Source: a virus
DNA: 64,000 bases
Virus record (IMG/VR): IMGVR_UViG_3300020048_000062
Coordinates: 34,938 to 98,937 of that record
Reading direction: 5' to 3' (one strand)
This document shows, piece after piece, positions 4,866-64,000 of this stretch. The notes beneath the pieces were generated by a model that had not been told where the DNA came from, ran no database searches, and saw nothing but the letters and a program-made list of their open reading frames with translations. Both the position numbers and the translations under genes were made by a program. Numbering within the stretch: position 1 is the first letter of the stretch; each line of letters opens with the position of its first letter.

Positions 4866-5630
4866 ATGTCATTACCAAAAAAAGCCAAAGTAACCCTAGA
4901 TACCAATCCACCAAAAGTAGGTAATGAATACCTTAAATATGGCATGGATAGAATTGAAACACTCATGCAGGCAACTGATACTAAGACTAAATATCTTCCA
5001 AGAACAATTTTACTCGAAGACTTAGACCAAGGACTTTTCGATTATGTCAGTAAAGAAGGTATGAAAGCCGTTATAGATAATAAGGAAGTTCCTACTTTCT
5101 ATCTTGATAATGACCGTTGGGGGGAATTTTCAAAGACTTGGAAATTCAGTGATAATGATAAGAATGTTCCTACACCTTATGTTACTGTTAGACGTATTGA
5201 TAAACAGGCTGGTACAAGACTTGGTACGAAGTATAGAGTTCCACAGGCACGTAAATTCAGATACATGAATGTTCCCATTCTCGATGAAGGTCAGGAAATA
5301 TTCCTACAATTCAGAATGCCAGAGCCAACTAATGTTGATATGATTTATGAAGTTGCATTGTTTACCAAATACAGAGTAGATGTAAACCAATACGATGAAC
5401 AGGTTTTAAAAAACTTTGCATCACGTCAGGATTATATCACAATTAAAGGTAATCCACTTCCACTATTATTTGAAGGCTTTGCTGAATCAAATCCAATTGA
5501 GAATATTGATGGTGATAGATTCTTCGTTAGTAAATATGCTTTAAAAATCTTGGGATTCATTCAAGATGAAAAGGAATTTGAAATTGTTAAAACACTAAGA
5601 AAGACAAGAATTGGTTTAACTGTTATGTAA
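4866..5630 (+). CDS. Putative tail completion/terminator protein (T4 gp15-like)
   Basis: 254 aa, structural context; ERW-like and P.v.v.R features; function inferred. Confidence 0.45.
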   Translation: MSLPKKAKVTLDTNPPKVGNEYLKYGMDRIETLMQATDTKTKYLPRTILLEDLDQGLFDYVSKEGMKAVIDNKEVPTFYLDNDRWGEFSKTWKFSDNDKNVPTPYVTVRRIDKQAGTRLGTKYRVPQARKFRYMNVPILDEGQEIFLQFRMPEPTNVDMIYEVALFTKYRVDVNQYDEQVLKNFASRQDYITIKGNPLPLLFEGFAESNPIENIDGDRFFVSKYALKILGFIQDEKEFEIVKTLRKTRIGLTVM

Positions 5631-6411
5631 CAGTATTACCGCTTGGAATAATATACGTATTCGTTTTATAACTATAAGTGCTACCTGTTGGGTATTGCTG
5701 CTTAATCTTATTATACTTCGTATAGGTATTGTTGACTCTATCGCTATAAGCAGTACTCGTGGTTAGGGTTCTTGCATCAACCTTATAATCAACAAGATTT
5801 AAGAACTTCCACGTTCTGTTAACTACATTTAATTCAACTTTAAAATACATCTTTTCTGGTGTGAGAAATGCAGCATTCACTTGATTATAGAATATTGAAG
5901 TCTCACCAGATTTAGCATTGTAGAAACTTAATTTAACGTATCCAATTACAGTTGTTCCACTTTGAGCGTCAATGTATGATTGAGGAACGTACCAGTAATA
6001 TAATTGATTAACTGTGTTTGGGTATAAGCTATATTCTGGAAATGCATTGACTTTAGTAAGATAGGTATTAAAAATCTTTACCTGTGTGTTTGGGTCATAT
6101 GAATCATAATAATCGAGAACGAAAAAACTGTTACGAATGTTAGATGTTTGACCACTAATTTCACTTACAGTGAATCCAGCACCAAGAAATGACACTACGT
6201 TATTAAACATAAATGAAAATATTGTATGTCCAAACATCTTGAATTTTCTTCTTTCCACATCAACAACAGGATTAACTAAATCAAGCATAGTCGTCTGAGT
6301 TAAGTTATCAATTTCTTGCTGATATCCAATGAAACTATCATTTGAACCTAAATTAAATTTCAAGTTCATGTCTAATCCATTCTTTAATATTTGTTCTCTT
6401 ATTATTGGCAT
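5623..6411 (-). CDS. Putative virion structural protein
   Basis: 262 aa, S/T/N/Y rich, in a late-motif operon; five [ST]GxT motifs. Confidence 0.6.
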   Translation of the reverse strand: MPIIREQILKNGLDMNLKFNLGSNDSFIGYQQEIDNLTQTTMLDLVNPVVDVERRKFKMFGHTIFSFMFNNVVSFLGAGFTVSEISGQTSNIRNSFFVLDYYDSYDPNTQVKIFNTYLTKVNAFPEYSLYPNTVNQLYYWYVPQSYIDAQSGTTVIGYVKLSFYNAKSGETSIFYNQVNAAFLTPEKMYFKVELNVVNRTWKFLNLVDYKVDARTLTTSTAYSDRVNNTYTKYNKIKQQYPTGSTYSYKTNTYIIPSGNTVT

Positions 6412-7589
6412 GGCTGTCCCATCTTATTTATGTCGCCTGTTGGCGTAACGTTTAATTTATATGAATTTCTTGCATACCAAACCTGTTCAAATGCTGTTAA
6501 TGTTTCTGTATCATCTAAATCTGGCTGTACGTCAAGTACAATCGATGTGAAAAGATATCTTCTCTTATTTACAAACGGGTGGTCAGTCCCAATACCACTT
6601 AAAGGGTCTTTGTATCCTTCTGACATAATATATCTCCAAACATAATTACCAGCAGTGTCGGCAGATGTTGCATAGTAAGGTATTGATTGAACATCAGCAT
6701 ATGATGTTCCACTAATATTAGCATTATACACGCTATCTGTTAAGTATCTAAGTCTTAGTGGAATAAATGGGTTGTATTTCCAGATAAGTCTATTAGTTCC
6801 ACCGCTATATGGCGTAGTTATGTAGAATTGTTCTGGCTGTAATTGTACTTGAAGATAATCTAACTTAGAATAATCAATTATGTCGCCAAACTTTTGTCCG
6901 TTCAATGACATGACGGTATCACCACTAATGAACGATTTTGTTAATATGTTTGGCGTGGTAACGCCACCAGTGTTATCCCATTGTTTTGCTGCCAATAGCT
7001 CGACTGGTGAAAGTGCTGGCTTGTATTGAGCATATAAAAAAAGTTCCGTTACAGGGAATCCAAATTGGTCTTGAAAACTACTTACATCGATATCTACATT
7101 AAAGTCATACGTATATCCTTGTTCCCCAAACACATTATTTGAAAAACCAACTGGAAATAAATCAAATTGATTAGGTGTGGCAATTATTGTAAAGAATCTA
7201 TTATAGGTGATAGTACTATTGTTGGTGCTGCTACCAGTTATTATGTGAGTATATCCACTAATAGAAGGTCTTACCAAATAAAAATCAAATGAATTTAATA
7301 TGTTCTTACTACTGCCAGTATATTCAGGTAGAAAGAAGTCTTGAAACTTATTGTAGCCATTTTTTAATCCGTTAAGTATGGACATGAACTCAATTCGACC
7401 ATAGATTCTGTAAATCTGATTCGCTTCACGTTCAGCATCAAACACTTCTGTAACACTAAGCACATTCCTAATGTCATACTCGTTGATTTCAACGGCATTG
7501 TTAGTTAGCTGAATAGTATTAAATGCATCGACATTAATTGAAGCAACGTTTTGGTATTGGTGTAATAATATTTCTAATTGTTCGTCCAT
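6402..7589 (-). CDS. Putative virion structural (baseplate-region) protein
   Basis: 395 aa, beta-rich composition, GTATTTAT at 7595-7602 on the minus strand. Confidence 0.6.
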   Translation of the reverse strand: MDEQLEILLHQYQNVASINVDAFNTIQLTNNAVEINEYDIRNVLSVTEVFDAEREANQIYRIYGRIEFMSILNGLKNGYNKFQDFFLPEYTGSSKNILNSFDFYLVRPSISGYTHIITGSSTNNSTITYNRFFTIIATPNQFDLFPVGFSNNVFGEQGYTYDFNVDIDVSSFQDQFGFPVTELFLYAQYKPALSPVELLAAKQWDNTGGVTTPNILTKSFISGDTVMSLNGQKFGDIIDYSKLDYLQVQLQPEQFYITTPYSGGTNRLIWKYNPFIPLRLRYLTDSVYNANISGTSYADVQSIPYYATSADTAGNYVWRYIMSEGYKDPLSGIGTDHPFVNKRRYLFTSIVLDVQPDLDDTETLTAFEQVWYARNSYKLNVTPTGDINKMGQPCQ

Positions 7590-7609
7590 ATGTTATAAAT
7601 ACCAAATTT

Positions 7610-10025: not shown

Positions 10026-12815
10026 ATGGCAGATTTTGTATTCACCTCACCGGGTGTAAAATTTAAAGAACGTGACCTTACATTCGTAACACGTAATGTG
10101 GGCATAACAACATTGGGTCTTGTTGGCGAAACCCTTAAAGGTCCTGCCTTCGAACCTGTTTTTGTACAAGACAAAACTGAGTATGCTAATAGGTTTGGTG
10201 GACAAAGTGTTAAAAGATTTACAGATGGAAATCTTCAATATCAATTACCTTATGTGGCAAACTCATACTTAGAAGAATCAAACCAATTATGGGTAACCAG
10301 AGTATTGGGACTAAGCGGATTTGACGCTGGTAAAGCATGGGCAGTTACATTAAGTGCTGGCGCAGACCCTGCAACTATAGTACAAGGTGCAACAACAACT
10401 GGATTAGTAGCTACGTTTACTGACAACACTTATTTAGGTGTTACATTAAACGGTCTTGGCGACACAGGAGTAAGTTTCTCTGGTTTCACAAAAACTGGTG
10501 TAACAAGTTTCAGAGGCATATCTCATTCATTCGTAGTTACTGCTTATAACAGTACATACGGTAGTGGTACAACAAGTGGAAACTCAACAGTATTCACAGC
10601 CGTTGAATATTCTGCATATTCAAATATGGTACTTGGTATAATCAGAAGTAGAGCATATACACAGGATGTTGTGAATGCAGCACCAGTAAATGTAGTTAAA
10701 ACAACTGCTCTTGCAATATCGGGAAATACTACTTTGGGTGGCATTGGCGATTTATTTGGAACATTTAAGTTAGTTGCTACAAGTGGTGTGACTAAAGCAA
10801 TTTATGTCACTTCATTGAATCCAGATGCATCTAGTTTCTTACCAAATGTAATTGGATTCGAACCTAACGATAAGACAACTATGGTTTGGGTTGAAGCAAC
10901 ATATCCAGACCTCATTAAAAAACTTGACGGTGGTGGCGATGCTGTACCAAGTGGATTTACATCATTTGGTTTACCAGCAGTTTTACCTTATGCATATGGT
11001 GTCAATGATAATTTAATTGAGTGTGATTCAGCATTCTTCACTAATTATAAAACACAATTTAAAACTCCTGAGACTCCTTGGGTAGTATCACAAGTTAAAG
11101 GTAATTCAGTAAGCAGATTATTTAAATTTATCAGTATTTCTGATGGTAATGCAGCAAATCAAGAAATTAAGATTAGCATTCAGAACATTAACCCTATTAC
11201 ACTTGAATTTGACATTATTGTTCGTAACTTCTATGATACTGATGACAATGTAAGTGTACTAGAATCATTCACAAGATGCGGTTTACTTAAAGGTAATAAT
11301 AACTACGTTGGACAGCGTATTGGTACAACTGATGGTGAATATGACCTACAAAGCAAATATATTATGATTGAGGTAGCTTCCGATATCACTGTGGGTGATT
11401 TTCCTGCTGGTTTCGAAGGTTATTTATTCAACAACTATGCTATGTCAGCCACAACTGGTACATATTCAGGTACTGCTCCAAAAATCTATTACAAAACGAA
11501 GTATAATGAAGACGAAAGAATTAAAAAAATATATTTAGGTGTTTCTGAAAATGCATACGATGCAGCTACAGTTGTCGGTACTGGTATTAATCAAAATTTC
11601 TTCAATTTTAATGGACAGGTTGCCACTGGTAGCCACGTTAAGACAAATGGTTTTCACATGGATATTGATGCATCTGGTGTAACTTCAAATGGTTATTCAT
11701 TTGATTGTGGTGATGGTACATTCCAAACAATTGGCGATGTTCAAGACCCATTAAATCCATATTACCTATTAGCATCCAGAAAATTCACATTTGCACCTTC
11801 TGGTGGTTTTGACGGATGGAATGTATATAGGTTTGTACGTTCATATGGTGATGATTATCGTCAAAACGGAATCTACGATGGTGTTGTTCCGAATTCAATT
11901 CCAACGAATGACTTCCAAGCATGGGAAACCGCAATTCAAACATATTCAAATCCAGAAGAAGTAACAATTAACTTATTTGCTACCCCTGCAATCAACTGGT
12001 CAAATCAAAATATTTTGATTCAAAATACAATTGAAATGATTGAACAGCAAAGAACTGATACACTATATGTAATCGATTCACCCGATGTATCTATTGACAT
12101 AACAGTAGGTGATAATGGTAAGGCTGATGTTGTAGCAACACAAGATATTGCAGATTTACTAGATACAGCAGATATTGATTCAAGTTATGCTACTACTTAT
12201 TTCCCTTGGATTCAAATGAGAGATACACAGAATAATGTTAATGTTTATATTCCACCAACAGGAGAGGTAGTGAGAGCAATGGCATATACTGACAACACTT
12301 CATTTCCTTGGTTCGCACCAGCAGGTCTTAACCGTGGTGTAACGAACGCAAGAAAATCTAAGTATAAACTATCACTTGAAGCAAGAGACGTGCTCTACGC
12401 TGGTAGAATCAATCCTGTGGCTGATTTTGCCGACACAGGAACAGCTATCTTTGGACAGAAGACATTACAAGTTAAAGAATCTGCACTTAATAGAATTAAT
12501 GTACGTAGATTATTATTACAAGTAAAGGTTCTTATTGCCAACATTGCAGTTAGACTTTTATTTGAACAAAACGACCAAGCTACTATTGACCAGTTCTTAT
12601 CTAAAGTAACTCCAATTCTCGATACAATTAAACGTGAAAGAGGTTTATTGGATTTCAGAATTAAAATGGATGATAGTAACAACACAACTGAAACTCGTGA
12701 TAGAAATGAACTTTACGGTGAAATCTACTTGAAACCAACACGTGCATTAGAATTTATTGGAATCACATTCACAATTACTCCTTCTGGCGCATCATTTAAT
12801 GACGTTGGAGCATAA
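10026..12815 (+). CDS. Contractile tail sheath protein
   Basis: N-terminal SPGV...E.D, GETLKGPAFEP; C-terminal PWFAPAG..RG, LY..RINP, FGQKTLQ, LNRINVRRL, FEQND, KPTRALEFI. Confidence 0.95.
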   Translation: MADFVFTSPGVKFKERDLTFVTRNVGITTLGLVGETLKGPAFEPVFVQDKTEYANRFGGQSVKRFTDGNLQYQLPYVANSYLEESNQLWVTRVLGLSGFDAGKAWAVTLSAGADPATIVQGATTTGLVATFTDNTYLGVTLNGLGDTGVSFSGFTKTGVTSFRGISHSFVVTAYNSTYGSGTTSGNSTVFTAVEYSAYSNMVLGIIRSRAYTQDVVNAAPVNVVKTTALAISGNTTLGGIGDLFGTFKLVATSGVTKAIYVTSLNPDASSFLPNVIGFEPNDKTTMVWVEATYPDLIKKLDGGGDAVPSGFTSFGLPAVLPYAYGVNDNLIECDSAFFTNYKTQFKTPETPWVVSQVKGNSVSRLFKFISISDGNAANQEIKISIQNINPITLEFDIIVRNFYDTDDNVSVLESFTRCGLLKGNNNYVGQRIGTTDGEYDLQSKYIMIEVASDITVGDFPAGFEGYLFNNYAMSATTGTYSGTAPKIYYKTKYNEDERIKKIYLGVSENAYDAATVVGTGINQNFFNFNGQVATGSHVKTNGFHMDIDASGVTSNGYSFDCGDGTFQTIGDVQDPLNPYYLLASRKFTFAPSGGFDGWNVYRFVRSYGDDYRQNGIYDGVVPNSIPTNDFQAWETAIQTYSNPEEVTINLFATPAINWSNQNILIQNTIEMIEQQRTDTLYVIDSPDVSIDITVGDNGKADVVATQDIADLLDTADIDSSYATTYFPWIQMRDTQNNVNVYIPPTGEVVRAMAYTDNTSFPWFAPAGLNRGVTNARKSKYKLSLEARDVLYAGRINPVADFADTGTAIFGQKTLQVKESALNRINVRRLLLQVKVLIANIAVRLLFEQNDQATIDQFLSKVTPILDTIKRERGLLDFRIKMDDSNNTTETRDRNELYGEIYLKPTRALEFIGITFTITPSGASFNDVGA

Positions 12816-13285: not shown

Positions 13286-13777
13286 ATGGCAGGAGAAATG
13301 ATTAGGGGTATCCCTTTTGAATACGAACCAAAAAGAGTAAATAGATTCTTTGCGGAATTTGCAGATGAATTAGGTATTGAAGTATGGAAGGTACAAAAGT
13401 TCAAAAGACCTTCAATGAAGATTAATTCAGTTCCAATACCTTATATGAATGAACAGAATTATGTTGCAGGTAGATACACTTGGGATACAATGTCTTTGAC
13501 ATTTCTCGACCCAATCGGTCCTTCGACATCACAGCAGTTAATGGAGTGGGTTCGTCTTCATGCTGAATCACTTACAGGACGTATGGGATATGCTGCTGGC
13601 TATAAGAAAAACATCTACTTGAAGGCGTTAGACCCAACAGGTATTGAAGTTGAAAAATGGTTTTTGGAACAATGTATGATTACATCAATTGACTTTGGTG
13701 ATAATGATTACGGAAATGATGAATTAACTAACATAACACTTGAGGTTCAGCCGTGGCGCTGCATACTCAACAACTAA
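13286..13777 (+). CDS. Tail tube protein (T4 gp19-like)
   Basis: 163 aa after the sheath; YEPKR.NRF, YVAGR.TW, DPI.PS....MEW, GYKK; GTATTTAT at 13232-13239. Confidence 0.88.
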   Translation: MAGEMIRGIPFEYEPKRVNRFFAEFADELGIEVWKVQKFKRPSMKINSVPIPYMNEQNYVAGRYTWDTMSLTFLDPIGPSTSQQLMEWVRLHAESLTGRMGYAAGYKKNIYLKALDPTGIEVEKWFLEQCMITSIDFGDNDYGNDELTNITLEVQPWRCILNN

Positions 13778-13802
13778 TCAAGTAGTTACGAATAAAAGAA
13801 TT

Positions 13803-18605: not shown

Positions 18606-18639
18606 CGGTTTATAGTTTTAGTACACATAAATACGCATT

Positions 18640-19587: not shown

Positions 19588-20385
19588 TTAAACAACAATC
19601 TGTTTAGGAAGTCTCGACATATCGATTACTCTATCGTTAGTAAAATTGGCTTCATTTGTTGCGGTATCGAACCAGAACTTACGTTCAGTTACTGGCATTT
19701 CTTTCTGGTAAACATCGAAGAGACTATCTTCACGTGTTGCCAAGTGTTTGTATCCGATTTTAGGCATTGAAAAAATTTTGCAAGCATTGTTTAATGCTCT
19801 TAAAAGGAACTCATACATAAAGGTAAGTTTGATGTTTGTTTTATACTTACCAATGTTTACGAACTCTGATTTCTTGATGACTGCGCCACTAAGTTTAAAA
19901 TCAGTGTATTGTTTTAATGCAGCAGCATTCAAATAACCCATTTCACCATTCTCGCCAACGAACTGCTGCGCCCAAACGGTTTCGTTTGTTAGTTTTATGC
20001 CTTCGCTCTTATCATTAACTTCAATCATCATTGACAAGAATACGTCAATATTTGGATAAGCCTTGGTGTATGCAGCAGCATTTTTAAAATAGGTTGTACT
20101 AAACTCGTCATCAAATTCAAGTACCGTGAAGTACTCTGTTGTTACGCTATCAACTGCAAGGTTTACTTGTGATTGATAATCGGTTTTACCTTCATTCAAT
20201 ATGACGATAGGTTCAATACCTTCAACTGTTTTAATCTGAGGATAAACATCGGCAGGACATACGATAATTACCGTAGGTGTTTCTGCTTTGTTTTCTTGTT
20301 TTACGATTGATTCAAGTGCTTTAGTTAAGTATTCTTGAATCTTTTCGTTATATTCGTGTACTGGTATTATTACTGAAATATTCAT
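19588..20385 (-). CDS. Glycosyltransferase family 2 (GT-A)
   Basis: ISVIIPVH, VNLAV....TEYFTVLEFDDE (DxD-like). Confidence 0.85.
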   Translation of the reverse strand: MNISVIIPVHEYNEKIQEYLTKALESIVKQENKAETPTVIIVCPADVYPQIKTVEGIEPIVILNEGKTDYQSQVNLAVDSVTTEYFTVLEFDDEFSTTYFKNAAAYTKAYPNIDVFLSMMIEVNDKSEGIKLTNETVWAQQFVGENGEMGYLNAAALKQYTDFKLSGAVIKKSEFVNIGKYKTNIKLTFMYEFLLRALNNACKIFSMPKIGYKHLATREDSLFDVYQKEMPVTERKFWFDTATNEANFTNDRVIDMSRLPKQIVV

Positions 20386-31792: not shown

Positions 31793-32482
31793 ATGAAAAA
31801 CAGAATCGCAGTTATTTTTTCTTCACATCTATCTGATGTGGAGAATCAGAAATTTACTAATCACATCCTTGAAACAATTGGTACTCCCAACGTAAGTGTG
31901 AGTTGTTATCATAACTTTAACACGAAAAGTCTTGCCGAAGTTTATAATTTAGGTATTAAAGAACACGATAATGAAAATACTATTATGGTGTTCTGTCACA
32001 ATGACATTCTTTTTAGAACGAAAAATTGGGGAAAAATGCTCCTTACTAAGTTCAACAGCTCAGATTTTGATATTATTGGTGTCGCTGGTACAACAGTACT
32101 TGCCGACAACGGTATATGGTGGTCAGACCGTAGTGCTATGTGTGGAGTTGTTGAACATACTGATGGTCAAAGGGTTTGGGTAAATGAATATGCTACACCA
32201 AAGGCTGGCTACACAAAACCAGTTGTATTGGTTGATGGTTTATTTATTGCAGCAGACTGTAGCAAAATTGTGCATGGGTGGGATGAAGAATTAAAAGGAT
32301 TTCACCTTTACGACTTAGGATTCTGTGTGCCGAATTATTTAGATGGTTGTGAAATTGGTGTCACAACTGACATAAGAATACTTCATCAATCTATTGGTAT
32401 GACAAATGACCAATGGGAAACTAACCGAAAACAATTCGTTGAGAAATATAAAGACGAGTTACCAATAATCTATCAAGCATGA
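31793..32482 (+). CDS. Glycosyltransferase, GT2-like
   Basis: SLAEVYNLG, VFCHND, DIIGVAG, VDGLFIA, FHLYD. Confidence 0.85.
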   Translation: MKNRIAVIFSSHLSDVENQKFTNHILETIGTPNVSVSCYHNFNTKSLAEVYNLGIKEHDNENTIMVFCHNDILFRTKNWGKMLLTKFNSSDFDIIGVAGTTVLADNGIWWSDRSAMCGVVEHTDGQRVWVNEYATPKAGYTKPVVLVDGLFIAADCSKIVHGWDEELKGFHLYDLGFCVPNYLDGCEIGVTTDIRILHQSIGMTNDQWETNRKQFVEKYKDELPIIYQA

Positions 32483-33114
32483 TATCAGTAGACAAAGAAG
32501 AAGATGGCACGTTACCAGTAAGTGTAATTGTACCATTAAGTAAAAACAGAAGAGAATTTTTCGAAAACATGGTGCTACCGATGCTCGGAGCTAATAACGT
32601 TAATGAAATCATCGTCAATGATGATGAAGGTTCTGCACCAAAGAAGCGTAATGCTGGATTTAAGAAAGCAACACAGCCATTTATTATGTTCTGTGATGAT
32701 GATATCATATTGCCAGCAAATTACATTGAATCGGCATATAATTTATTAAAGAAAAACCCAGATGTTGCTTTTGTATATTCTGGGTATCATGGTATTGTAC
32801 TACATCCAGAATCTCACCCAATGCATGGAAATTTTGAGATTCCTAACATTGAGTTTGATAAACAGGCGTTAAGATATGGTAATTACATATCAACAATGAC
32901 ATTAATGCGTAGAGAAGTGTTTCCATTGTTTGATGAAACATTGAAAAGGCTGCAAGATTGGGATTTGTTTTTAACTATAGTTAAAAACGGATGGAAGGGT
33001 ATGCTTATACCTGATCAAACTTTTTACGCATTTTATTTGGATAATGGTATAACTTCCAATAATAATAGTGAAATTGATGCAATTAATGCAATTAGAAATA
33101 AACATGGTTTCTAA
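32479..33114 (+). CDS. Glycosyltransferase family 2
   Basis: VSVIVP, KRNAG...A..PFIMFCDDD, FDE.L.RLQDWDLFL. Confidence 0.9.
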   Translation: MISVDKEEDGTLPVSVIVPLSKNRREFFENMVLPMLGANNVNEIIVNDDEGSAPKKRNAGFKKATQPFIMFCDDDIILPANYIESAYNLLKKNPDVAFVYSGYHGIVLHPESHPMHGNFEIPNIEFDKQALRYGNYISTMTLMRREVFPLFDETLKRLQDWDLFLTIVKNGWKGMLIPDQTFYAFYLDNGITSNNNSEIDAINAIRNKHGF

Positions 33115-34072
33115 AGGTATTAATTATATGAAAAGGAGTAAAATTGAGAATAAAAAAAGAATTGAAAAAAGACACGAAAAGTTAGTGTTTTTAGATGAAA
33201 ATATATTTAGTATGAATATAGACAGGGATAAACGAAGATTGTACAGTGATAACCCAACACCATTAAACACAGTTGGATTAACACGTAATGAAAGACGAAC
33301 AGGAATATTATTAGATAAAACACCTATTGTTCTGCGCACGTTTATTAAAAAAAATGTTGTTGATTATGATGTTGTAATATGTATTCCATCACACAATCGA
33401 TTTGATAAGGTAAGAAGATTAATCAATCAATTTAAAGATCAAGAGACTAAATATACGTTTAAAATTATATTATTGAATGATGGTTCGAGTGATGATTCAT
33501 ACAATAAATTAATGAATGAGTTTAATGATATAACATACTTGGTAAATGAGAAACCAAATGGTAAAATATTGCATTGGTATTGTTATAATCAAATGTGGGA
33601 GCATTTGAAAGATATTCAATGTCATGCCATATTACAAATGGACGATGATTTTATACTTAGTAATAATTTTTTAAACACAATTGTTGATCTATTTTTTGAA
33701 ATGAAAGAAAAAAACGGTAATTTTATGGCAATTTCACCACATCTGTGGTCGTTTAAGATTAATACCGAATATGAGGATTGGTGGAAACGGACTAATTTTA
33801 TTGATGGAATTGGATTAATAGATGAAGAGGTTATTAAATATATGAATTATGAAATGCAACCTGTTGATGCCGAAGCAGTTCAAAAGGTCGGAGCACCTGT
33901 TAGAGCATGGACACAAATAGGTGCTGTTATTCAAAAAATGGGTGGTATGATTTATAGAACCGCAAATTCGTTGGTATATCATGATGGAAATGATGATTCA
34001 AAATTACACGGTGATATTAGAATAAATGGAAAAGCAGGTGTTTACACACAAAAATACGTTGGAGAATTATGA
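33068..34072 (+). CDS. Glycosyltransferase family 2
   Basis: VICIPSHNR, LLNDGSSD, LQMDDDF; true start probably a downstream Met. Confidence 0.85.
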   Translation: MKLMQLMQLEINMVSKGINYMKRSKIENKKRIEKRHEKLVFLDENIFSMNIDRDKRRLYSDNPTPLNTVGLTRNERRTGILLDKTPIVLRTFIKKNVVDYDVVICIPSHNRFDKVRRLINQFKDQETKYTFKIILLNDGSSDDSYNKLMNEFNDITYLVNEKPNGKILHWYCYNQMWEHLKDIQCHAILQMDDDFILSNNFLNTIVDLFFEMKEKNGNFMAISPHLWSFKINTEYEDWWKRTNFIDGIGLIDEEVIKYMNYEMQPVDAEAVQKVGAPVRAWTQIGAVIQKMGGMIYRTANSLVYHDGNDDSKLHGDIRINGKAGVYTQKYVGEL

Positions 34073-34806: not shown

Positions 34807-35531
34807 AAACGTTTGACGGTGATTTCACCAAATTCTTAAATATGATTAAATCTGGCGAACACTTTTCGTTGTCTCGTTGGGGTGATGGTGAATTAATGAT
34901 ACTCGAAGGCAAGCCAATTGATATTCGTTCAAAAGGTAATGGTGAATTTAGATATAACCCCAATTTATCTCAATATGATTTAGTTCGAAATAAATTAAAA
35001 GAAGCTTACATTTATAATGATGATAATTATTATATAGGTATAGCTTGTCCGTGTTGTGTGGGTCAAGAGAAATACAAATATATGAAAATGATGTCACTTC
35101 AAGACGAAGAACATCTTACATGGGCAAACATATTTGTTAATGCTAATTACAGAAGAACAGTTAACGAGTTAATTCCAGAACTCTCAAATCACAGCGTTAC
35201 AATAGTGGTTAATAAGAATGCAAAAATCGACAATCTACCGTTCAAACCTACAAATGTTTTGCGTGTTGGAACAGATGCATGGCTTAATGATTATAAAATG
35301 ATTGAAGAAAAAATTGGTCGAATGATTGGTAATGAAGGAATTGAAAACGAAATATTTCTTTTTGCAGCAGGACCGCTTGCTAACATCCTAACACATAGCA
35401 TGTGGAAATATCACAGCAAGAAAAATACATACATCGATATTGGCTCAATATTAGACCCTTATCTTAAATTAAAACTAACAAGAGGCTATCACTTAGGTGC
35501 GCCCACATTAAATAAAGTATGCACATGGTAA
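34803..35531 (+). CDS. GT-D fold / DUF1792-like glycosyltransferase
   Basis: FSLSRWGDGE, LFAAGPLA, YIDIGS..D. Confidence 0.7.
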   Translation: MKTFDGDFTKFLNMIKSGEHFSLSRWGDGELMILEGKPIDIRSKGNGEFRYNPNLSQYDLVRNKLKEAYIYNDDNYYIGIACPCCVGQEKYKYMKMMSLQDEEHLTWANIFVNANYRRTVNELIPELSNHSVTIVVNKNAKIDNLPFKPTNVLRVGTDAWLNDYKMIEEKIGRMIGNEGIENEIFLFAAGPLANILTHSMWKYHSKKNTYIDIGSILDPYLKLKLTRGYHLGAPTLNKVCTW

Positions 35532-36088
35532 TTCCTAAACATAATTATACGCTTAGAGAAAAAAGTGTAATAAATCTTCTTAGCGAGAATGTATTAGTTG
35601 TTGAAAAGATTAGAACATTCTTAAATGTTGGATTTCATGGATGGAAAGACGATAGAGCACATTGGTGGATTAAATTTTGCAATGAAAACGGTATTGATTG
35701 GAAAATACTTGAAATATTTGAACAAAATATTGTTAATGCAATTTCTGATGGATGTCCAGTAGATAAAATAGTCTTAGGCGATATATTAAATACTGAAACA
35801 TATGAAACTGTGGATTGTTTAATGTTTTGGCACGGTCCTGAGCATATTTTGAAAGATGAATTTCTTTCTAAATTACCTGAAATCGAAAGAAAGGTAAATA
35901 AATTAATTATATTTGGTATGCCATTGGGATATGAGCCACAACATACTGTTTATGGTAATATACATGAAAATCACCTATCTGAGTGGCATAGTATTGATTG
36001 GAGAAATCTTGGATATACTGTGACAGAAGTACACGATAGATTAATACATCAACATTTAACTGCATATAAAATATTGAACAATGAATAA
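35519..36088 (+). CDS. Putative SAM-dependent methyltransferase-like protein
   Basis: FLNVG, LEIF, GDI, D.....HGPEH, IIFGMP. Confidence 0.55.
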   Translation: MHMVIPKHNYTLREKSVINLLSENVLVVEKIRTFLNVGFHGWKDDRAHWWIKFCNENGIDWKILEIFEQNIVNAISDGCPVDKIVLGDILNTETYETVDCLMFWHGPEHILKDEFLSKLPEIERKVNKLIIFGMPLGYEPQHTVYGNIHENHLSEWHSIDWRNLGYTVTEVHDRLIHQHLTAYKILNNE

Positions 36089-36674
36089 ATTTAAGGTAAT
36101 TGATTTTAGATTTGCGAAAGCAACTGATACACACGATGATAAATATAGTCAAGCTGGTGCTTGGTCAAGGTTATTTGAATACCCCTACGTAATTGATTTT
36201 ATTAAAATGCATAAGCTTAAGGATTTTAGTATTCCTGAAATCCACAATACATCTTGGGGTTTTGAAGGTATACATGTTACATTTAGGGACGATTTAGACT
36301 TACTCGGCACTGCAATACATTCTGATATTCGTAATTCAGAATTTAGGGAAACCTATTATTATGACATTACTGAGGAAAATAAAGAATTTGAAAAGAAATT
36401 TGATTTCGTTGTTAATGTATCAACAATTGAACATCTTGATACAGCTAACAATAGATTAACTGCGATAAAAAACTTAATGAAACAAGTGAAGGTTGGTGGA
36501 TATCTTATATTAACATTTGACTATCCAAGGGTTAATCTAAACGAGATTGAAACATTGGTTGGTGTAAAATGTAAAGTACCTGAGAATGCATTAAATGGTG
36601 CTAACTCTATCAATCCAAACCAAGCATATAAAGACTTAAATATAGTATACCTAACACTAAGAAACGATGAATAA
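36081..36674 (+). CDS. Putative methyltransferase-like protein
   Basis: SR.FEYP, FDFVVNVSTIEH, KVGGYLILT. Confidence 0.65.
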   Translation: MNKFKVIDFRFAKATDTHDDKYSQAGAWSRLFEYPYVIDFIKMHKLKDFSIPEIHNTSWGFEGIHVTFRDDLDLLGTAIHSDIRNSEFRETYYYDITEENKEFEKKFDFVVNVSTIEHLDTANNRLTAIKNLMKQVKVGGYLILTFDYPRVNLNEIETLVGVKCKVPENALNGANSINPNQAYKDLNIVYLTLRNDE

Positions 36675-37227
36675 TTTTTGGGAAGAAAGATACAAAGCTG
36701 GTGGCAATTCGGGTGCTGGCTCATATGGCGAATACGCTGAACATAAAGCCGAAGTAATAAATAACTATATTGAAAAATTTGACATAGGAACAATCTCCGA
36801 TTTTGGATGTGGTGATGGAAATCAAACAACCTTACTTAAAGGATTTAACGCTTATACTGGATTCGATATATCTCCATATGTTATAGAGATTTGTCGCAGG
36901 AAATTCAAGGATAATGCGAGCGTTAATTTCTGTACAGTAATGTCAGAGTTACCAGAATCCGACATGTGTATATCATTAGACGTACTTTATCACATACTAG
37001 ATGAAAAGGATTATAATGACTACTTAACATTACTCTTTTCGAAGTCAAAGAAGTATGTTTTAATATTTTCATCGAATCATGCCAGAAATCCAGAAGGTGC
37101 TTCGCATATATTTCACCGTAAATTTACTGATTGGGTTGAAGAAAATGCTAAAGACTTTAAATTAATTGAAGAAACGAGCAACATGCTCCAAACTTCCGCA
37201 CAATTCTTTTTATACGAAAAAATATGA
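36667..37227 (+). CDS. Class I SAM-dependent methyltransferase
   Basis: FWEERY..GGNSG.GS, DFGCGDG, YTGFDIS, SLDVLYH. Confidence 0.88.
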   Translation: MNNFWEERYKAGGNSGAGSYGEYAEHKAEVINNYIEKFDIGTISDFGCGDGNQTTLLKGFNAYTGFDISPYVIEICRRKFKDNASVNFCTVMSELPESDMCISLDVLYHILDEKDYNDYLTLLFSKSKKYVLIFSSNHARNPEGASHIFHRKFTDWVEENAKDFKLIEETSNMLQTSAQFFLYEKI

Positions 37228-37271
37228 TACTTTTATTGTATACAACGAGTATTTATAATAAATGAAATAAT

Positions 37272-38057
37272 ATGGGATGTGTTTATAAAATAATTAATAG
37301 TGTTAATGATAAAATATATGTTGGTCAAACAACGATGAAGTTAGTTAGAAGACTATATTTTCATCAAAAAAATCTTACAGGCAAAAGTATAATAACCAAA
37401 GCAATTAATAAACACGGTATTGAAAATTTTAGTATTGTGATTATTGAAGAAATGGGTAATGAATTACTTAATGAAAGAGAAATATATTGGATTAAAACAT
37501 TAAATAGTAAAATTCCTAATGGATATAATTTAACTGATGGCGGTAGTGGTGTTTCAGGCTATAAACATAGTGAAGAACATTGTAGGAATCTTTCAATTAG
37601 TTCAATGGGATGTAATAATAATTTTTATGATAAAAAACACACATCTGACGCTAAATTGATTATTGGATTAAAAGGAAAAAATAGAATACCTTGGAATAAA
37701 GGTAAAAAAATGAGTGTAATTTCTAAAAATAAGCTAAAAGATAAGATTACTGAAAAGTGGAAGAATGGCGATTATTTAAATAGAAACATTAATTATAATG
37801 ATGAAAATAGAGTTAAGAAAATTTCTGATAAATTAAAGGGTAAGAAGCCTAGTTTTGAAATTATTGAAAAAAGAAAAATGGGCATTAATAAAAGATATGA
37901 AGAAAATGGTAAGTCTTGGGGAGTATCCGATATGGAAATAATTGCTAGTAATTATCAAATTTTAAGTGATAAGGAAATGCAAATTATTTTCTTTCCCAAT
38001 AGAACCTATAATTCAGTAAGAAGTATGAGAAATAAAATGAATTTAAAACGAAAATAA
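37272..38057 (+). CDS. Free-standing GIY-YIG homing endonuclease (NUMOD3)
   Basis: GCVYKI.N..NDKIYVGQT, EIYWI, GYNLTDGG, HSEE, PWNKGKK; GTATTTAT at 37249-37256. Confidence 0.9.
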   Translation: MGCVYKIINSVNDKIYVGQTTMKLVRRLYFHQKNLTGKSIITKAINKHGIENFSIVIIEEMGNELLNEREIYWIKTLNSKIPNGYNLTDGGSGVSGYKHSEEHCRNLSISSMGCNNNFYDKKHTSDAKLIIGLKGKNRIPWNKGKKMSVISKNKLKDKITEKWKNGDYLNRNINYNDENRVKKISDKLKGKKPSFEIIEKRKMGINKRYEENGKSWGVSDMEIIASNYQILSDKEMQIIFFPNRTYNSVRSMRNKMNLKRK

Positions 38058-38058
38058 T

Positions 38059-39066
38059 ATGTGTTTACTTTTGGCATACGGAACTCGACCCGAATACATT
38101 AAGCTCAAATCATTGATTCATGAGCTAGATATGAACAACTATCCATATAAATTGCTTTTCACTGGTCAACACAGTGATATTGCAGCATTTCCTTATGATT
38201 ACTGTATTAGTATCACTAATCTGGGTTTCAATAGGTTAGATATGATTGTTCAATCAATTATGGATAAATTTACTTTTTTTAACAAAGAAAATGATATTAC
38301 ACATGTATTGGTTCAAGGCGATACTACTTCGGCATTTGCCGTAGCATTGTCAGCATTTCATCACGGCATTAAGGTTATTCACCTTGAAGCAGGCTTACGC
38401 ACATATGATAAGAAGAATCCATATCCAGAAGAAGTAAACCGTAGACTTATTTCTGAAATTGCTGACATTCATTTGTGTCCAACTAAACAATCAATGATTA
38501 ACTTAAGAAATGAGGAAGCACAGGGTGAAATATTTGTTGTAGGCAATACAGTAATTGATAATCTATTACCGTATAAGGACATGTGTGAGTATAGTTATAA
38601 GATATTAGTTACCATGCACAGGCGTGAAAATCATGAAAGAATGTCTGAATGGTTTACTGAAATTAATAAGCTGGCTATTGAATACCCAGAGTTTGAGTTC
38701 ATATTACCACTACACCCAAACCCAAACGTACAAAAACATAAAGATTTACTCACACACGTAAATATTATTGACCCACTACCATATGAAAAAATGCTTGAAC
38801 TTTTAGTTAAGGTTAGATTAGTCATTACTGATAGTGGTGGATTACAAGAAGAATGTAGTTTCTTCAACAAAAAATGTTTGGTTTGTAGAACAATCACAGA
38901 AAGACCAGAATCAATTGAGCGTAGTTCGTGGCTTGTTAAAAGTCCAGATATGTTATCAAGTATGTTCTTTGACCAATATGATACATATGACATTGATTTC
39001 ATATGTCCATTTGGTGATGGTCATGCAGCAGAAAAAATAATGACAATAATTAAAGCAAGTGTATGA
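38059..39066 (+). CDS. wecB: UDP-N-acetylglucosamine 2-epimerase (non-hydrolysing)
   Basis: GTRPEYIK, TGQH, VQGDT, HLEAGLR, PEEVNR, TMHRREN, TDSGGLQEE, TERPE, PFGDG. Confidence 0.95.
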   Translation: MCLLLAYGTRPEYIKLKSLIHELDMNNYPYKLLFTGQHSDIAAFPYDYCISITNLGFNRLDMIVQSIMDKFTFFNKENDITHVLVQGDTTSAFAVALSAFHHGIKVIHLEAGLRTYDKKNPYPEEVNRRLISEIADIHLCPTKQSMINLRNEEAQGEIFVVGNTVIDNLLPYKDMCEYSYKILVTMHRRENHERMSEWFTEINKLAIEYPEFEFILPLHPNPNVQKHKDLLTHVNIIDPLPYEKMLELLVKVRLVITDSGGLQEECSFFNKKCLVCRTITERPESIERSSWLVKSPDMLSSMFFDQYDTYDIDFICPFGDGHAAEKIMTIIKASV

Positions 39067-39833
39067 AAGAAAGAGTATTAGTAATTGGCGATAGTTGTGA
39101 GGATTTATTTAGATATGGTAGGTGTGAAAGGCTAAGTCCAGAAGCACCAGTACCAATCTTTTTACCAACCAGAACAACTGGCAATGGTGGTATGGCTATT
39201 AATGTATATGAAAACTTGAAAGCATTGGGTGTTGATTGTGATTTAATTACAAATGACATTCGACCAGTGAAAATGCGATTTGTTGATGAAGTTTCCAATC
39301 AAATGATATTAAGAGTTGACGAAAAGGATACTATCGAACAAATCAGGCTTGACGAAATCGAAAGAATTAACTTTGGAGTGTATGAAGCAGTAATTATTTG
39401 CGATTATAATAAGGGTTATCTTTCAGAAGAAGACATTAAACATATATGTAGAAACCATACGAGAGTTTTTATCGACACAAAGAAAAAACTTGATTCGTGG
39501 TGCTTGGGCGCATTTATGTTGAAGCTTAATAACAAGGAAGCTGACGAGAATTTGGATTTTTTAATGCTTAACAGTGAATTGATTGGCATTATTATTACCA
39601 AAGGAAAATCAGGTGCTGAATTAAATATGTTTGGCGAAGTAAGATTATTTCCTATTGAATCAGAACATGCTGTACGTGATCTAAGTGGTGCTGGTGATAC
39701 TTTTATTGCGGGACTTGTTGCAGATTTCATTTATAATGACGATATTTGCAGCGCAATTGAATATGCAAACAAATGTGCATCGTGGGTAGTTACCCAAAAG
39801 GGTGTGGCTATTGTGGATAAAAATAAGATATAA
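39063..39833 (+). CDS. rfaE: Heptose-7-phosphate kinase domain (RfaE/HldE domain I, PfkB family)
   Basis: VIGD..D...G...RLSPEAPVP, GG.A.NV, DYNKG, D.SGAGDTF. Confidence 0.85.
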   Translation: MKERVLVIGDSCEDLFRYGRCERLSPEAPVPIFLPTRTTGNGGMAINVYENLKALGVDCDLITNDIRPVKMRFVDEVSNQMILRVDEKDTIEQIRLDEIERINFGVYEAVIICDYNKGYLSEEDIKHICRNHTRVFIDTKKKLDSWCLGAFMLKLNNKEADENLDFLMLNSELIGIIITKGKSGAELNMFGEVRLFPIESEHAVRDLSGAGDTFIAGLVADFIYNDDICSAIEYANKCASWVVTQKGVAIVDKNKI

Positions 39834-39834
39834 A

Positions 39835-40470
39835 ATGAAACTCGCTAACATTGTTTATGAAAAGGAATTGGTTAATCATACAAAAGTTGATTACGTGAAC
39901 TACATTAATGTCGCAACTGAATATGATAAACTTGATAGGGATTTACCTACACTATATGTCGGTTGGTCGTTTATGAAGGCTTCCAATCCAAACAATGAAA
40001 TCATCAAAAATACGAATATTCTTGAGAGAAGAATCATCACAAATGAATTATATTGGGAATGTAGCTTCGATGAAAATAAAGGACTTCACGTAAAGGGAGT
40101 TGAGAATTTCATAAAATCGATACCTGAGTATTACTTCATACCTAAATATAAATACATCAACCACGACCCCGTATTTTTTCACATTAAAAACGTAGATGAC
40201 CTAATGAATGGGTTGCCAACAAATATAGATGCTACTTATAACTACAAAAATGAAATGCTATATGCTTTAGTTGATAACGTTATTTTTGGCATTAATTTAA
40301 AAATGTATCAGTATTTTAAATTTGATGTTGACGATTTATTGTTTAGAATTGCAGAAAGAACAGAGACTGGATTCCTCGATGAAGAAGGAATTTCATATCA
40401 ACACTATTACAAGATATTACCCGAATTTAAACAACTTAAAAGATATATAATCACAATCCTTAGTAAATAG
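39835..40470 (+). CDS. Hypothetical protein
   Basis: ORF coupled to rfaE; start reassigned to the ATG at 39835. Confidence 0.65.
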   Translation: MKLANIVYEKELVNHTKVDYVNYINVATEYDKLDRDLPTLYVGWSFMKASNPNNEIIKNTNILERRIITNELYWECSFDENKGLHVKGVENFIKSIPEYYFIPKYKYINHDPVFFHIKNVDDLMNGLPTNIDATYNYKNEMLYALVDNVIFGINLKMYQYFKFDVDDLLFRIAERTETGFLDEEGISYQHYYKILPEFKQLKRYIITILSK

Positions 40471-63499: not shown

Positions 63500-63518
63500 A
63501 TGAATTAACATTATTAAT

Positions 63519-63556
63519 AACAAAAAACCCATCGAATCCTGATGGGTTTTTTGTTT
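63519..63556 (+). terminator. Intrinsic (possibly bidirectional) terminator
   Basis: aacaaaaaacccatc ... gatgggttttttgtt. Confidence 0.8.
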
Positions 63557-63588
63557 GTGAAAAGTATTTATCTTAAAACGTATATAAT

Positions 63589-64000
63589 ATGGGAACATTT
63601 GCAATTGACTTATTAAGTGGTAATGAATTTTTATTTAATGGTGATTTTGGTGGTGGTGGTACTGGCAGTACTACAATCACAGCCAATAACGGCTTAACTA
63701 AATTAGGCGATAATATTGCTTTAGGGGGAACATTGACGGGTAATACTACTATTGATGTTGATACTAATTATCTCGATTTTAAAGATTATGTGTTTAATGG
63801 TTCAGGTATGACGATTGGAAGTGGATTTAATAATTATGTTAGGTCAATAGCAATTCAATCCGATGGAAAGCTAATTCTTGGTGGTAATTATTTTGCATTA
63901 TACAATGGAACATCAGCCAATAGGATAATAAGGCTTAATTCAAATGGTAGTATTGATACAAGTTTCGTCTATGGAACTGGTTTAAATGATTATGGTGTTG
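63589..64000 (+). CDS. Virion protein with delta-60 (DUF5122) beta-propeller repeats, truncated at the window edge
   Basis: Translated by hand: MGTFAIDLLSG...VRSIAIQSDGKLILGG...IIRLNSNGSIDTSF; GTATTTAT at 63564-63571. Confidence 0.8.
   Translation, partial: MGTFAIDLLSGNEFLFNGDFGGGGTGSTTITANNGLTKLGDNIALGGTLTGNTTIDVDTNYLDFKDYVFNGSGMTIGSGFNNYVRSIAIQSDGKLILGGNYFALYNGTSANRIIRLNSNGSIDTSFVYGTGLNDYGV

Follow-up and report, generated by a model that had tools for sequence, protein, structure and literature searches.

Does the tetrapeptide [S/T]-G-x-[T/S], which recurs in proteins of unrelated families encoded in a single stretch of phage DNA, tag these proteins for modification, and is it read by the glycosyltransferases (GTs) that the same stretch encodes? 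The stretch, referred to below as the window, comprises 64,000 nucleotides of a 99-kb contig. Its source is an uncultured phage of ~330 kb, with the motif trait present in hundreds of relatives. No cultured member of the clade was found in the phage collection, where the best match to the major capsid protein (MCP) is at most 40% identical. The analysis supports a genuine motif that is specific in sequence and maintained by selection, and that is found only in late or outer-virion proteins, whose families are unrelated. The original prediction went further and proposed a phage-specific sequon for O-glycosylation. It is supported in part: a selected, specific motif and many soluble GTs encoded by the phage are consistent with it, and the finding that no transferase tracks the motif speaks against a simple link.

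The hand counts of motifs from which the question arose were all reproduced exactly (Table 1). Expected numbers derive from composition-preserving shuffles carried out per protein, and figures are given throughout as observed vs expected. The enrichment persists after this correction for composition, with 73 vs 16 motifs (z 14.8) in nine proteins of the contig taken together and a 4-15x excess in the nine carriers under per-protein shuffles. The contig proteome, minus the repeat fibre, was also scanned without bias for every pattern of the forms a-b-x-c, a-x-b-c and a-b-c; of those with real counts, S-G-x-T ranked highest (41 vs 8.6, z 11.4), and T-G-x-T reached z 6.4. Enrichment requires each of [ST] at position 0, G at position 1 and [ST] at position 3. 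The same residues rearranged yield only 1.4-2.1x, compared with 4.6x for the motif order; the excess of G-x-T (91 vs 44) depends on S/T preceding the Gly, and [hydrophobic]G.[ST] amounts to 34 vs 31. Position x excludes P, K and R (998 unique contexts), and the residue just before the motif is mostly hydrophobic or a proline. The other 88 proteins of the contig, which include the MCP (2 vs 1.0), portal, tail tube and baseplate hub, are at chance level (21 vs 19.4). No avoidance of the motif was found in non-target proteins (34 vs 27.7 and 82 vs 77.2).

It is extremely improbable that S/T/G-rich composition, repeats within the proteins or errors of gene-calling account for this signal. The carriers are richer in S/T (18% vs 12%) and tandem repeats inflate counts in some relatives, but the 4-15x excess remains after shuffling within proteins and within the sheath insertion alone, the permuted patterns are not comparably enriched, and the carriers of the window share no similarity beyond one fibre repeat. 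A composition or repeat origin was rejected by the shuffles, pattern scan, permuted patterns and segment tests. A cause at the DNA level was also rejected, the carrier genes lying on both strands and their Ser codons being mixed. Ser at position 0 is encoded by AGT in 65% and by TCN in 30% of cases; both AGY and TCN are thus in use, which places the signal at the protein level. The excess of AGT/ACT ahead of GGN reflects codon context throughout the genome. Common ancestry of the carriers, dismissed from the start as an explanation, was rejected by blastp and hhalign (hhalign probability <1%).

Table 1. Motif carriers, control and sugar-related genes. Coordinates are those of the window unless stated otherwise.
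Feature	Position	Strand	Motifs per [ST]G dipeptide	Motifs, observed vs expected	Assignment and remarks
Late protein, 262 aa	5623..6411	-	5/5	5 vs 0.35	No Pfam/PHROG match
Late protein, 395 aa	6402..7589	-	6/9	6 vs 0.59	
Tail sheath	10026..12815	+		10 vs 2.2	tblastn matches to sheath genes
Tail tube (interior negative control)	13286..13777	+	0/2		PHROG tail tube
Late protein, 442 aa	16873..18201	-	5/6	5 vs 0.64	
GT2-type (GT-A) glycosyltransferase, clade core gene	19588..20385	-			Pfam Glycos_transf_2, E 1.6e-6
GT-B (GT4-like) glycosyltransferase, 393 aa	20410..21591	-			Adjoins GT2; AF2 pLDDT 83
Sugar island, ~8 kb	31793..40470	+			Four GT2-type, weak GT-D-like, methyltransferase(s), GIY-YIG homing endonuclease, WecB, RfaE-domain-I-like kinase
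Late protein, 497 aa	43583..45076	+	4/8	4 vs 0.72	Late box at 43561
Repeat tail fibre, 1794 aa	45089..50473	+			Peptidase_S74; PHROG tail spike / virion structural protein
Cysteine-rich protein, 379 aa	58085..59224	+		9 vs 3.1 (p 0.0005)	
Virion structural / tail-spike-like protein, 1056 aa	59239..62409	+		17 vs 5.7	PHROG
Fibre-like ORF, N-terminus only (contig end)	63589..64000	+	3/6	3 vs 0.78 (p 0.036)	Late box at 63564
674-aa protein, upstream	contig 2432-4456	-		14 vs 1.9	

The carriers of the window had been taken for structural proteins. Family matches bear this out for the sheath, for the fibre and for the 1056-aa protein; the 262-, 395-, 442-, 497-, 379- and 674-aa proteins are putatively assigned to the virion from gene position and a late-promoter box directly upstream. 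Such a box (GTATTTAT, 7595-7602) directly precedes the 395-aa gene, and the 442-aa gene sits in an operon behind another one at 18627-18634. Orthologues of the 262-aa and 395-aa proteins in relatives are enriched 6.0x in both families, and those of the 442-aa protein 2.7x. In G002, a complete 328-kb relative, enrichment is found in the orthologues of the 497-aa (5 vs 0.5), 379-aa (9 vs 2.8) and 1056-aa (30 vs 8.4) proteins; distant orthologues of the 497-aa protein are unenriched (21 vs 22). A search of the ESM Atlas returned nothing for the 395-aa protein and, for the 674-aa protein, no more than a lead (ConA-like/Laminin_G_3).

Within the larger carriers the motif is confined to particular segments. 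The variable insertion of the sheath (residues 111-330) holds 8/10 copies (8 vs 1.39, p 0.001 in a segment-only shuffle), the conserved N-terminus has 0 and the core 2 vs 0.93, as the clustering noted by eye had suggested. The 1794-aa fibre, whose C-terminus is an endosialidase-chaperone, is enriched only in residues 1-300 (7 vs 1.34), the N-terminal region singled out earlier; its remainder stands at 3 vs 5.8 and the whole protein is consequently unenriched (10 vs 7.2). In the interior tail tube, 79 orthologues have 3 motifs among 167 [ST]G, vs 8.3 expected. Since the capsid protein is also unenriched, the coating of the whole virion surface that had been envisaged is an overstatement.

Enrichment persists in about 80 relatives and in the complete genome of G002 (14/409 ORFs enriched). 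Sheath proteins have 715 vs 185 motifs in 79 orthologues (3.9x), and the 69 distinct ones carry 9.2±1.7 copies per protein distributed over 58 alignment columns, only one of which is conserved at 80% or more. Within columns, S/T stands at +3 with a probability of 0.56 when [ST]G is present and of 0.31 when it is absent, an effect seen at offset +3 only; the two motif halves are gained and lost together. The S-G-x-T excess beyond shuffles, the turnover of sites, this joint gain and loss and the unrelated carriers argue for a selected linear unit rather than a composition effect. The enrichment is not generic to myovirus proteins: T4, Mel-JY01, LR756508 and immuto (a Flavobacterium phage) have 1.0-1.6x overall, with unenriched sheaths.

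Selection could act on structure without any modification. An S/T-G tight turn followed by a beta-branched Thr that opens the next strand might have spread by convergence and small duplications in fibre-like or beta-sandwich modules. The Gly, the hydrophobic residue at -1 and the Thr at +3 are compatible with a turn-to-strand transition, and the AF2 model of the 262-aa protein (poor, pLDDT 56; a fold search with it gave nothing usable) puts 5/5 sites either in a loop leading into a strand or at a hairpin turn. The joint gain and loss of the halves fits a structural unit too, but the sheath sites move while their number is kept, and homologous sheaths of the same architecture have 0 motifs (G037 and G040) or 7, so that the sheath fold does not need the motif. 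Other observations conform to the structural explanation: in L015:15475-17730 the motif heads every ~27-aa tandem repeat unit, and T4 gp36 (3 vs 0.6), T4 gp37 (8 vs 4.0) and immuto fibres are mildly enriched (1.3-5x). We know of no virion glycosylation in T4. The beta-rich interior tube and hub nevertheless show no enrichment, and the 4-15x of the carriers contrasts with the overall values of the four other myoviruses. We consider this explanation unlikely.

The enzymes first listed for the window are roughly borne out. About eight GTs were claimed and seven GT-like genes were found, namely five firm GT2-type genes, one GT-B identified by fold and one weak GT-D-like match; of three methyltransferases, one is firm and one weak. 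WecB scores above its curated cut-off, and the presumed heptose kinase belongs to the PfkB kinases and comes nearest to RfaE domain I, with a score well short of the RfaE cut-off. The seven GT-like genes were noted without any machinery for export or membrane insertion beside them. A HAD-like assignment of 22007-22747 has no support in Pfam, NCBIfam or a profile search against the PDB. The GT2 of the tail region is 69-75% identical in five relatives and kept in 75/80 distant loci, a homologue being absent from T4, Mel-JY01, LR756508 and immuto; it is a candidate writer of the motif. The adjoining GT-B is a candidate writer or extender. The best Foldseek match of its model is 8xsg (AmGGT/Agt family; E 1.5e-12, TM 0.66/0.75), GtfA and SdgB come lower (ranks 8, 22, 49), and its profile, run against the PDB, aligns almost end to end at E 0.006. 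Just 462 representatives of its family occur among 1.84 billion, and single-protein scans for distant relatives yielded almost nothing. The GT-B/GT2 pair is conserved and located among tail genes. In the sugar island, Pfam assigns Glycos_transf_2 to three genes and Glyco_tranf_2_5 to 31793-32482. The island is conserved in G002; its homologues are absent from G027, a distant but motif-rich genome. No late box was found upstream of the GT operon or of the island.

When GT sets were set against the motif in relatives, as suggested with the original prediction, no transferase was found to track it. The GT-B/GT2 pair was rejected as determinant: it is missing in the four motif-less outgroups, a contrast that amounts to one evolutionary event, yet it also occurs in G037, whose motif count is at chance (72 vs 68), and in G013, where enrichment is slight. 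The pair is therefore not sufficient for enrichment. GT2 and Glyco_tranf_2_5 genes were also tallied in 30 records, and the tallies do not tell sheaths rich in the motif from those poor in it (2.6x with Glyco_tranf_2_5, 2.0x without). Genes common to the motif-rich G002 and G027 and missing from G037 and G013 code only for papain-like protease, SprT-like, metallophosphatase, HNH and dUTPase proteins, with no transferase among them. These co-occurrence tests run against a simple enzyme-motif link.

The same results bear on the possibility of a different reader, either a host or other phage enzyme carrying out a non-sugar modification (e.g. phosphorylation) or a non-enzymatic role such as weak binding of a polysaccharide or an assembly chaperone. 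Varying enrichment among lineages that all keep the GT pair would follow if the reader were outside the phage or if use of the motif depended on the host. The transferases of the window could instead serve modification of DNA or of the host surface and envelope; the lack of late boxes agrees with this, and phage GT clusters that glycosylate DNA are known, as cited in PMC12619734. We regard a different reader as quite unlikely. Neither a protein kinase nor another modifying enzyme was found among the scanned window proteins, and the periplasmic O-glycosylation of Bacteroidota uses another sequon, unenriched here. Just one family match could have to do with modified bases in DNA, a gene of the thymidylate synthase family (634-1719) that its strong Pfam score makes a putative ThyA.

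Our preferred reading, held tentatively and at somewhat less than an even chance, is that the motif is a linear recognition tag, most likely read by a soluble phage glycosyltransferase that adds an O-linked sugar. The 3.9x enrichment in the sheath and 6x in the 262- and 395-aa families, the copy number kept while sites move, and the origin of the nearest solved relative of the GT-B in a family extending protein-linked glucose in the cytoplasm all point to it. Against it count the GT pair in unenriched G037, the island homologues missing in G027, the mild enrichment of T4 gp36/gp37, the lack of avoidance in non-target proteins and the lack of late boxes before the GT genes. In this mechanism selection would place the motif in loops of outward-facing tail proteins (sheath insertion domain, fibres, late proteins), the soluble GT would act on virion proteins in the cytoplasm, during or after their folding, and put the O-linked sugar on the motif Thr or Ser, and its extension would be left to the variable sugar island. 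The transferase as reader, the residue modified and the role of the coat (shielding or host binding) are what we infer.

A broader form of this reading, which we find rather doubtful, is that a large clade of uncultured jumbo phages with a worldwide distribution sugar-coats its sheath and fibres at the O-sequon hydrophobic-[S/T]-G-x-T, with conserved core enzymes priming, a hypervariable island diversifying the glycan, and sites gained and lost as in the glycan shield of animal viruses. If glycosylated, it would be a sequon for self-glycosylation by a phage, of which, to our knowledge, none has been described before. In the literature examined, virion glycosylation made by a phage is shown experimentally only in mycobacteriophages. 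Were the glycosylation reading true, the modification would be predictable from sequence, with concrete peptides and enzymes to test, and large phage sugar islands would gain a suggested purpose, e.g. shielding the particle or aiding binding. If the motif is structural or otherwise read, it is still an unusually sharp convergence of one linear motif in unrelated virion proteins that needs explanation.

We know of no short sequon defined for the virion glycosylation of mycobacteriophages. Their virion O-glycosylation is reportedly carried out by phage-encoded glycosyltransferases (attributed to Freeman et al. 2023, Cell Host Microbe). PMC12619734 places these virion glycans on capsid and tail-tube subunits, at their C-termini. 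The two systems have in common phage-encoded soluble transferases, cytoplasmic assembly and glycans on virion proteins, proposed here and shown there. They differ in that the capsid protein and tube of the present phage lack motif enrichment, and the candidate sites, predicted from sequence, are a four-residue motif in internal loops of the sheath, fibres and late proteins.

Among bacterial systems, SgtA of Clostridioides difficile is a GT-A enzyme that puts O-GlcNAc on the Thr two residues after Gly in the G-P-T repeats of BclA3 and accepts Ser (PMC7157674). It offers a precedent, by analogy, for GT-A glycosylation of a Thr in this position, and shares with our case a GT-A domain and many sites on a surface protein. 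SgtA has TPR repeats and collagen-like triplet acceptors, whereas Pfam scans found no TPR family on the window transferases and no collagen-like triplet repeats are present; the motif requires an S/T ahead of the Gly, tolerates no Pro at x and occurs at dispersed sites of proteins unrelated to collagen. In Actinobacillus, which has NGT and Agt, Agt extends a glucose already present on a cytoplasmic protein, AmGGT (PDB 8xsg) being an Agt homologue (PMC12159676). AmGGT is the top structural match of the 393-aa GT-B, at ~16% sequence identity. The Actinobacillus system, however, starts by N-glucosylation of N-x-S/T; N[^P][ST] is unenriched in the motif proteins (69 vs 71) and no NGT-type (GT41) enzyme was matched among the scanned proteins.

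The heptosyltransferases Aah and TibC hyper-glycosylate the autotransporters AIDA-I and TibA in the cytoplasm, on Ser/Thr in loops between short strands of a beta-rich surface protein, where they recognise a short structural motif. Acceptor loops next to strands may be a likeness, to judge from the poor model of the 262-aa protein described above; the heptose-kinase-like gene, although it misses the RfaE cut-off by a wide margin, is another. The acceptors here are instead spread over many unrelated proteins, and Pfam and NCBIfam scans gave no match to a GT9-type heptosyltransferase, the sole GT-B resembling GT4/Agt. General O-glycosylation in Bacteroidota is periplasmic with the sequon D-(S/T)-(A/I/L/V/M/T), from which the motif differs, as had been pointed out; this sequon is unenriched in the motif proteins (19 vs 18.9). 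Other candidate sequons, G-x-T-G, [ST][GAS]S and DGY, are unenriched here. The GtfA/B and SdgA/B systems, which glycosylate serine-rich-repeat and SD-repeat proteins, employ a GT4-type GT-B on long low-complexity Ser repeats, unlike the isolated tetrapeptides in folded proteins found here. A viral counterpart is the eukaryotic chlorovirus PBCV-1, whose major capsid protein bears N-linked glycans determined experimentally. Its capsid glycosylation is reviewed in PMC9614988 and PMC5408694. While the linkage and target differ, PBCV-1 resembles the system proposed here in combining virus-encoded cytoplasmic machinery with a non-canonical sequon on a virion protein.

The motif [ST]-G-x-[ST] was put forward in the original prediction as a candidate O-glycosylation sequon of virion proteins. 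The per-protein counts on which this rested were all reproduced when ORFs were called mechanically and the motif counted, and the enrichment withstood 2000 composition-preserving shuffles per protein. It amounts to 3-15x in eight proteins of the window and one encoded upstream (the carriers; see table), with 73 motifs versus 16 expected when the enriched proteins are pooled (z 14.8). As a guard against cherry-picking, all residue triples of the forms a-b-x-c, a-x-b-c and a-b-c were scanned in the whole contig proteome minus the 1794-aa repeat fibre. Among patterns with real counts S-G-x-T ranks first (41 versus 8.6, z 11.4), followed by T-G-x-T (29 versus 9.5). The signal depends on residue order: rearranged patterns such as G[ST].[ST] or [ST].G[ST] reach only 1.4-2.1x, while replacement of Gly by Ala ([ST]A.[ST]) gives 11 versus 8.6, a hydrophobic first residue ([hydrophobic]G.[ST]) 34 versus 31, and N or Q in the last position ([ST]G.[NQ]) 5 versus 9.3. 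Among 998 unique motif contexts of the clade, +3 is Thr in 75%, P, F and I are preferred and R, K and E avoided at position -1, and x is almost never P, K or R. The signal lies at the protein level, since AGY and TCN codons are both used for Ser at position 0, the preference for AGT/ACT ahead of GGN reflects codon context generally and carrier genes are found on both strands; that the enrichment is an artefact is highly improbable. No enrichment is seen for the known sequons N-x-S/T or D-(S/T)-(A/I/L/V/M/T).

The window is the final 64 kb of a 98,937 bp viral contig. This contig represents part of the genome of an uncultured myovirus, a distant relative of T4 whose host probably belongs to the Bacteroidota, and is syntenic with the complete IMG/VR genome G002 (327,676 bp). 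The sheath has at least 392 relatives in IMG/VR, the best 80 being 62-87% identical; no cultured relative was found in the phage collection, whose best MCP match is at most 40% identical. Eight of the 10 motif copies of the sheath fall in its variable insertion (residues 111-330; 8 versus 1.39 when only this segment is shuffled). Its invariant N-terminus has none and its conserved core 2 versus 0.93. Enrichment in the 1794-aa fibre is confined to the first 300 residues (7 versus 1.34). Motif counts do not depart from chance in the capsid protein (2 versus 1.0), presumed portal, tail tube, baseplate hub proteins or any enzyme; pooled, the 88 remaining contig proteins, these included, carry 21 motifs versus 19.4 expected. 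Avoidance of the motif in non-target proteins was looked for and not found.

The 262-, 395-, 442-, 497-, 379- and 674-aa carriers have no Pfam or PHROG match. A late-type box, GTATTTAT, occurs 22 times in the window (both strands; 8.2 expected) and precedes most late/virion genes, those of the sheath, tube and hub included, by 15-60 nt; most of the six carriers without a family lie directly behind one. The box is absent before the PhoH-GT-B-GT2 operon and before the sugar island. From their position we infer that these six carriers are virion proteins. The 379-aa carrier is unusually Cys-rich, with CxxxC-like spacing in several places, which points to a receptor-binding tip stabilised by disulfides or metal. 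The 674-aa carrier, encoded outside the window, has 14 motifs; the closest named clusters in the ESM Atlas consist of viral Laminin_G_3/ConA-like lectin proteins (score 0.95), a similarity taken as a lead only.

Motif carriers, glycosylation-related genes and neighbouring features (window coordinates unless stated; strand in brackets)
Feature	Position	Remarks
262-aa carrier	5623-6411 (-)	
395-aa carrier	6402-7589 (-)	
Sheath	10026-12815 (+)	carrier
GIY-YIG/NUMOD3 homing endonuclease	13740-14471	adjoins tail tube gene; late-type box upstream
442-aa carrier	16873-18201 (-)	
PhoH		operon among tail genes, listed in order
95-aa ORF		same operon
ORF	22007-22747	same operon
Small capsid-like ORF		same operon
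GT-B	20410-21591 (-)	same operon
GT2	19588-20385 (-)	same operon
ORF	18682-19560	same operon
Sugar island	31793-40470 (+)	four GT2-type genes; one weak GT-D/SP_1767-like gene; methyltransferases, one firm and one weak; WecB, above curated cut-off; PfkB kinase, closest to RfaE domain I (132 bits versus cut-off 345)
GIY-YIG/NUMOD3 homing endonuclease	37272-38057	inside sugar island; late-type box upstream
497-aa carrier	43583-45076 (+)	
1794-aa fibre	45089-50473 (+)	motif enriched in first 300 residues only
379-aa carrier	58085-59224 (+)	
1056-aa carrier	59239-62409 (+)	
Fibre-like ORF cut by contig end (carrier)	63589-64000 (+)	
674-aa carrier	L001:2432-4456 (-)	contig coordinates
gp23-type capsid protein	upstream 35 kb of contig	
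Portal and terminase (presumed)	upstream 35 kb of contig	from ORF size and conservation in G002

Common descent of the carriers is ruled out by blastp and profile-profile comparison. Blastp found no similarity among them except a fibre repeat common to the 1056-aa and 1794-aa proteins, and profiles of the 262-aa and 395-aa families and of the sheath family, compared with one another, gave probabilities <1%; the motif patch itself was the only short stretch to align in two of the three pairings. A patch of ~14 residues that includes a copy of the motif, E-[IY]-[ST]-G-x-[ST]-x-N-I-x-N-S-F, recurs in the adjacent and otherwise unrelated 262-aa and 395-aa proteins; it may be a small shared module, though at an hhalign probability of only 0.8%.

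Orthologues from about 80 relatives show the excess in the sheath family (715 versus 185, 3.9x) and in the 262-aa (90 versus 15, 6.0x), 395-aa (124 versus 20.6, 6.0x) and 442-aa (72 versus 26.8, 2.7x) families; the tail tube family has 3 versus 8.3 (0.4x). Enrichment in G002 is seen in 14 of its 409 ORFs (168 versus 44.5), and the other 395 carry 82 versus 77; the 14 are orthologues of the carriers and further large unannotated ORFs, of which two are homologous to fibres. The 69 distinct sheaths compared hold 9.2±1.7 copies each, at sites spread over 58 alignment columns, one occupied at ≥80% and five at 50-80%, a spread to which alignment uncertainty in the variable region may add. In the 262-aa family, sites disappear from one position and arise anew a few residues along. 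At columns polymorphic for [ST]G, the +3 residue is S/T in 56% of cases with [ST]G and 31% without it in the sheath, 53% and 8% in the 262-aa family, 62% and 35% in the 395-aa family, and 46% and 23% in the 442-aa family. No coupling to [ST]G was seen at +2, +4 or +5 in the same sequences and columns, so that relatedness alone does not explain the +3 coupling, although the fractions carry no formal phylogenetic correction. These results show that the motif is a linear unit kept by selection in number and not in place.

Some orthologues of the 262-aa protein (L007:11176-12018, L009:11179-12051 and L015:11176-12048) have an N-terminal insertion of stacked motif copies, e.g. SGNTGNTfTGNT, that is absent from the window protein. 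In a 751-aa protein from one of these loci (L015:15475-17730, minus strand), 27 of the 30 [ST]G dipeptides fall within the motif; most copies head a Cys-bearing tandem repeat of ~27 aa (...CGCVPxSFLL-SGGT-AICAT... / ...YYLN-TGST...).

A generic trait of such proteins is ruled out by four outgroup phages, T4, Microcystis phage Mel-JY01, huge phage LR756508 and Flavobacterium phage immuto. Their structural regions have overall ratios of 1.0-1.6 and their sheaths 0-3 copies versus 1.2-2.6 expected. The T4 fibres show a mild excess (gp36 3 versus 0.6, gp37 8 versus 4.0), which cautions that the pattern may to some degree be structurally favoured in fibres. A purely structural turn-to-strand motif is unlikely: one sheath architecture carries from 0 versus 1.6 to 7 versus 1.6 copies among 30 records of a distant subfamily of the window's GT-B (about 107 versus 47 summed), sites shift while their number is held, and interior beta-rich proteins are spared. 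A lineage-specific function is favoured on these grounds.

The GT-B of the tail-gene operon (393 aa) has a confident fold (model pLDDT 83). GtfA and SdgB, glycosyltransferases of repeat proteins, rank lower among its structure matches. The best solved match is AmGGT (8xsg; E 1.5e-12, TM 0.75), which is homologous to the Agt enzymes of Actinobacillus, whose role is to extend glucose attached to protein (PMC12159676). The family is narrow, with 462 representatives at E ≤0.001 among 1.84 billion proteins, and apparently phage-borne in the loci fetched; IMG/VR contains at least 484 relatives of the GT-B. Its consensus at the usual GT4 E-x7-E region is SSFGTFPLEC, the first Glu being replaced.

The link between enzymes and motif is the weakest point of the original prediction. 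The GT-B/GT2 pair is 60-77% conserved within the clade and absent from the four outgroup phages, a contrast that amounts to a single evolutionary event. In 75-80 of 80 loci of the distant GT-B subfamily, a functionally unassigned ORF, the GT-B, the GT2 and the ORF downstream of them have stayed together. The operon of the pair is present in each of four distant genomes that were compared in full: G037 (277 kb, 76% complete) has no enrichment (72 versus 68; S-G-x-T z 1.9), and of the complete genomes G013 shows it weakly (106 versus 84), G026 moderately (85 versus 61; GT2 partner not detected by blastp or Pfam) and G027 strongly (299 versus 147, with one fibre at 87 versus 21). G027 has no homologue of the window's island genes and encodes other GT2 proteins, one fused to Stealth domains. 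No transferase is among the genes that G002 and G027 share and that G037 and G013 lack, and tallies of GT2 and Glyco_tranf_2_5 over the 30 records do not split motif-rich from motif-poor sheaths (about 2.6x with the family, 2.0x without). The G037 and G027 genomes and these tallies thus indicate that the pair is not sufficient and the island not necessary, and they identify no reader of the motif. Another reader or another modification is unlikely, slightly more so than the structural motif.

Two of these genomes have other over-represented patterns. G013 (L239-L254), with little S-G-x-T enrichment, has T-L-P-D-N-L in about 20 proteins (LPxN 79 versus 16, P.NL 77 versus 15). G037 (L255-L268) has C-P-x-C 43 versus 0.9 in 21 proteins, together with hugely over-represented related G-C-P-K-C...H patterns; the excess probably reflects a large paralogous zinc-ribbon family.

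That the motif is a glycosylation sequon is held tentatively, as a little short of an even prospect. A phage-made O-glycan would be the most economical proposal for what reads it, given the enzyme load, assembly in the cytoplasm and the precedents. Autotransporters and flagellins are glycosylated in the cytoplasm, and mycobacteriophage virions offer a further parallel. Another precedent is SgtA, which acts on G-P-T (PMC7157674).
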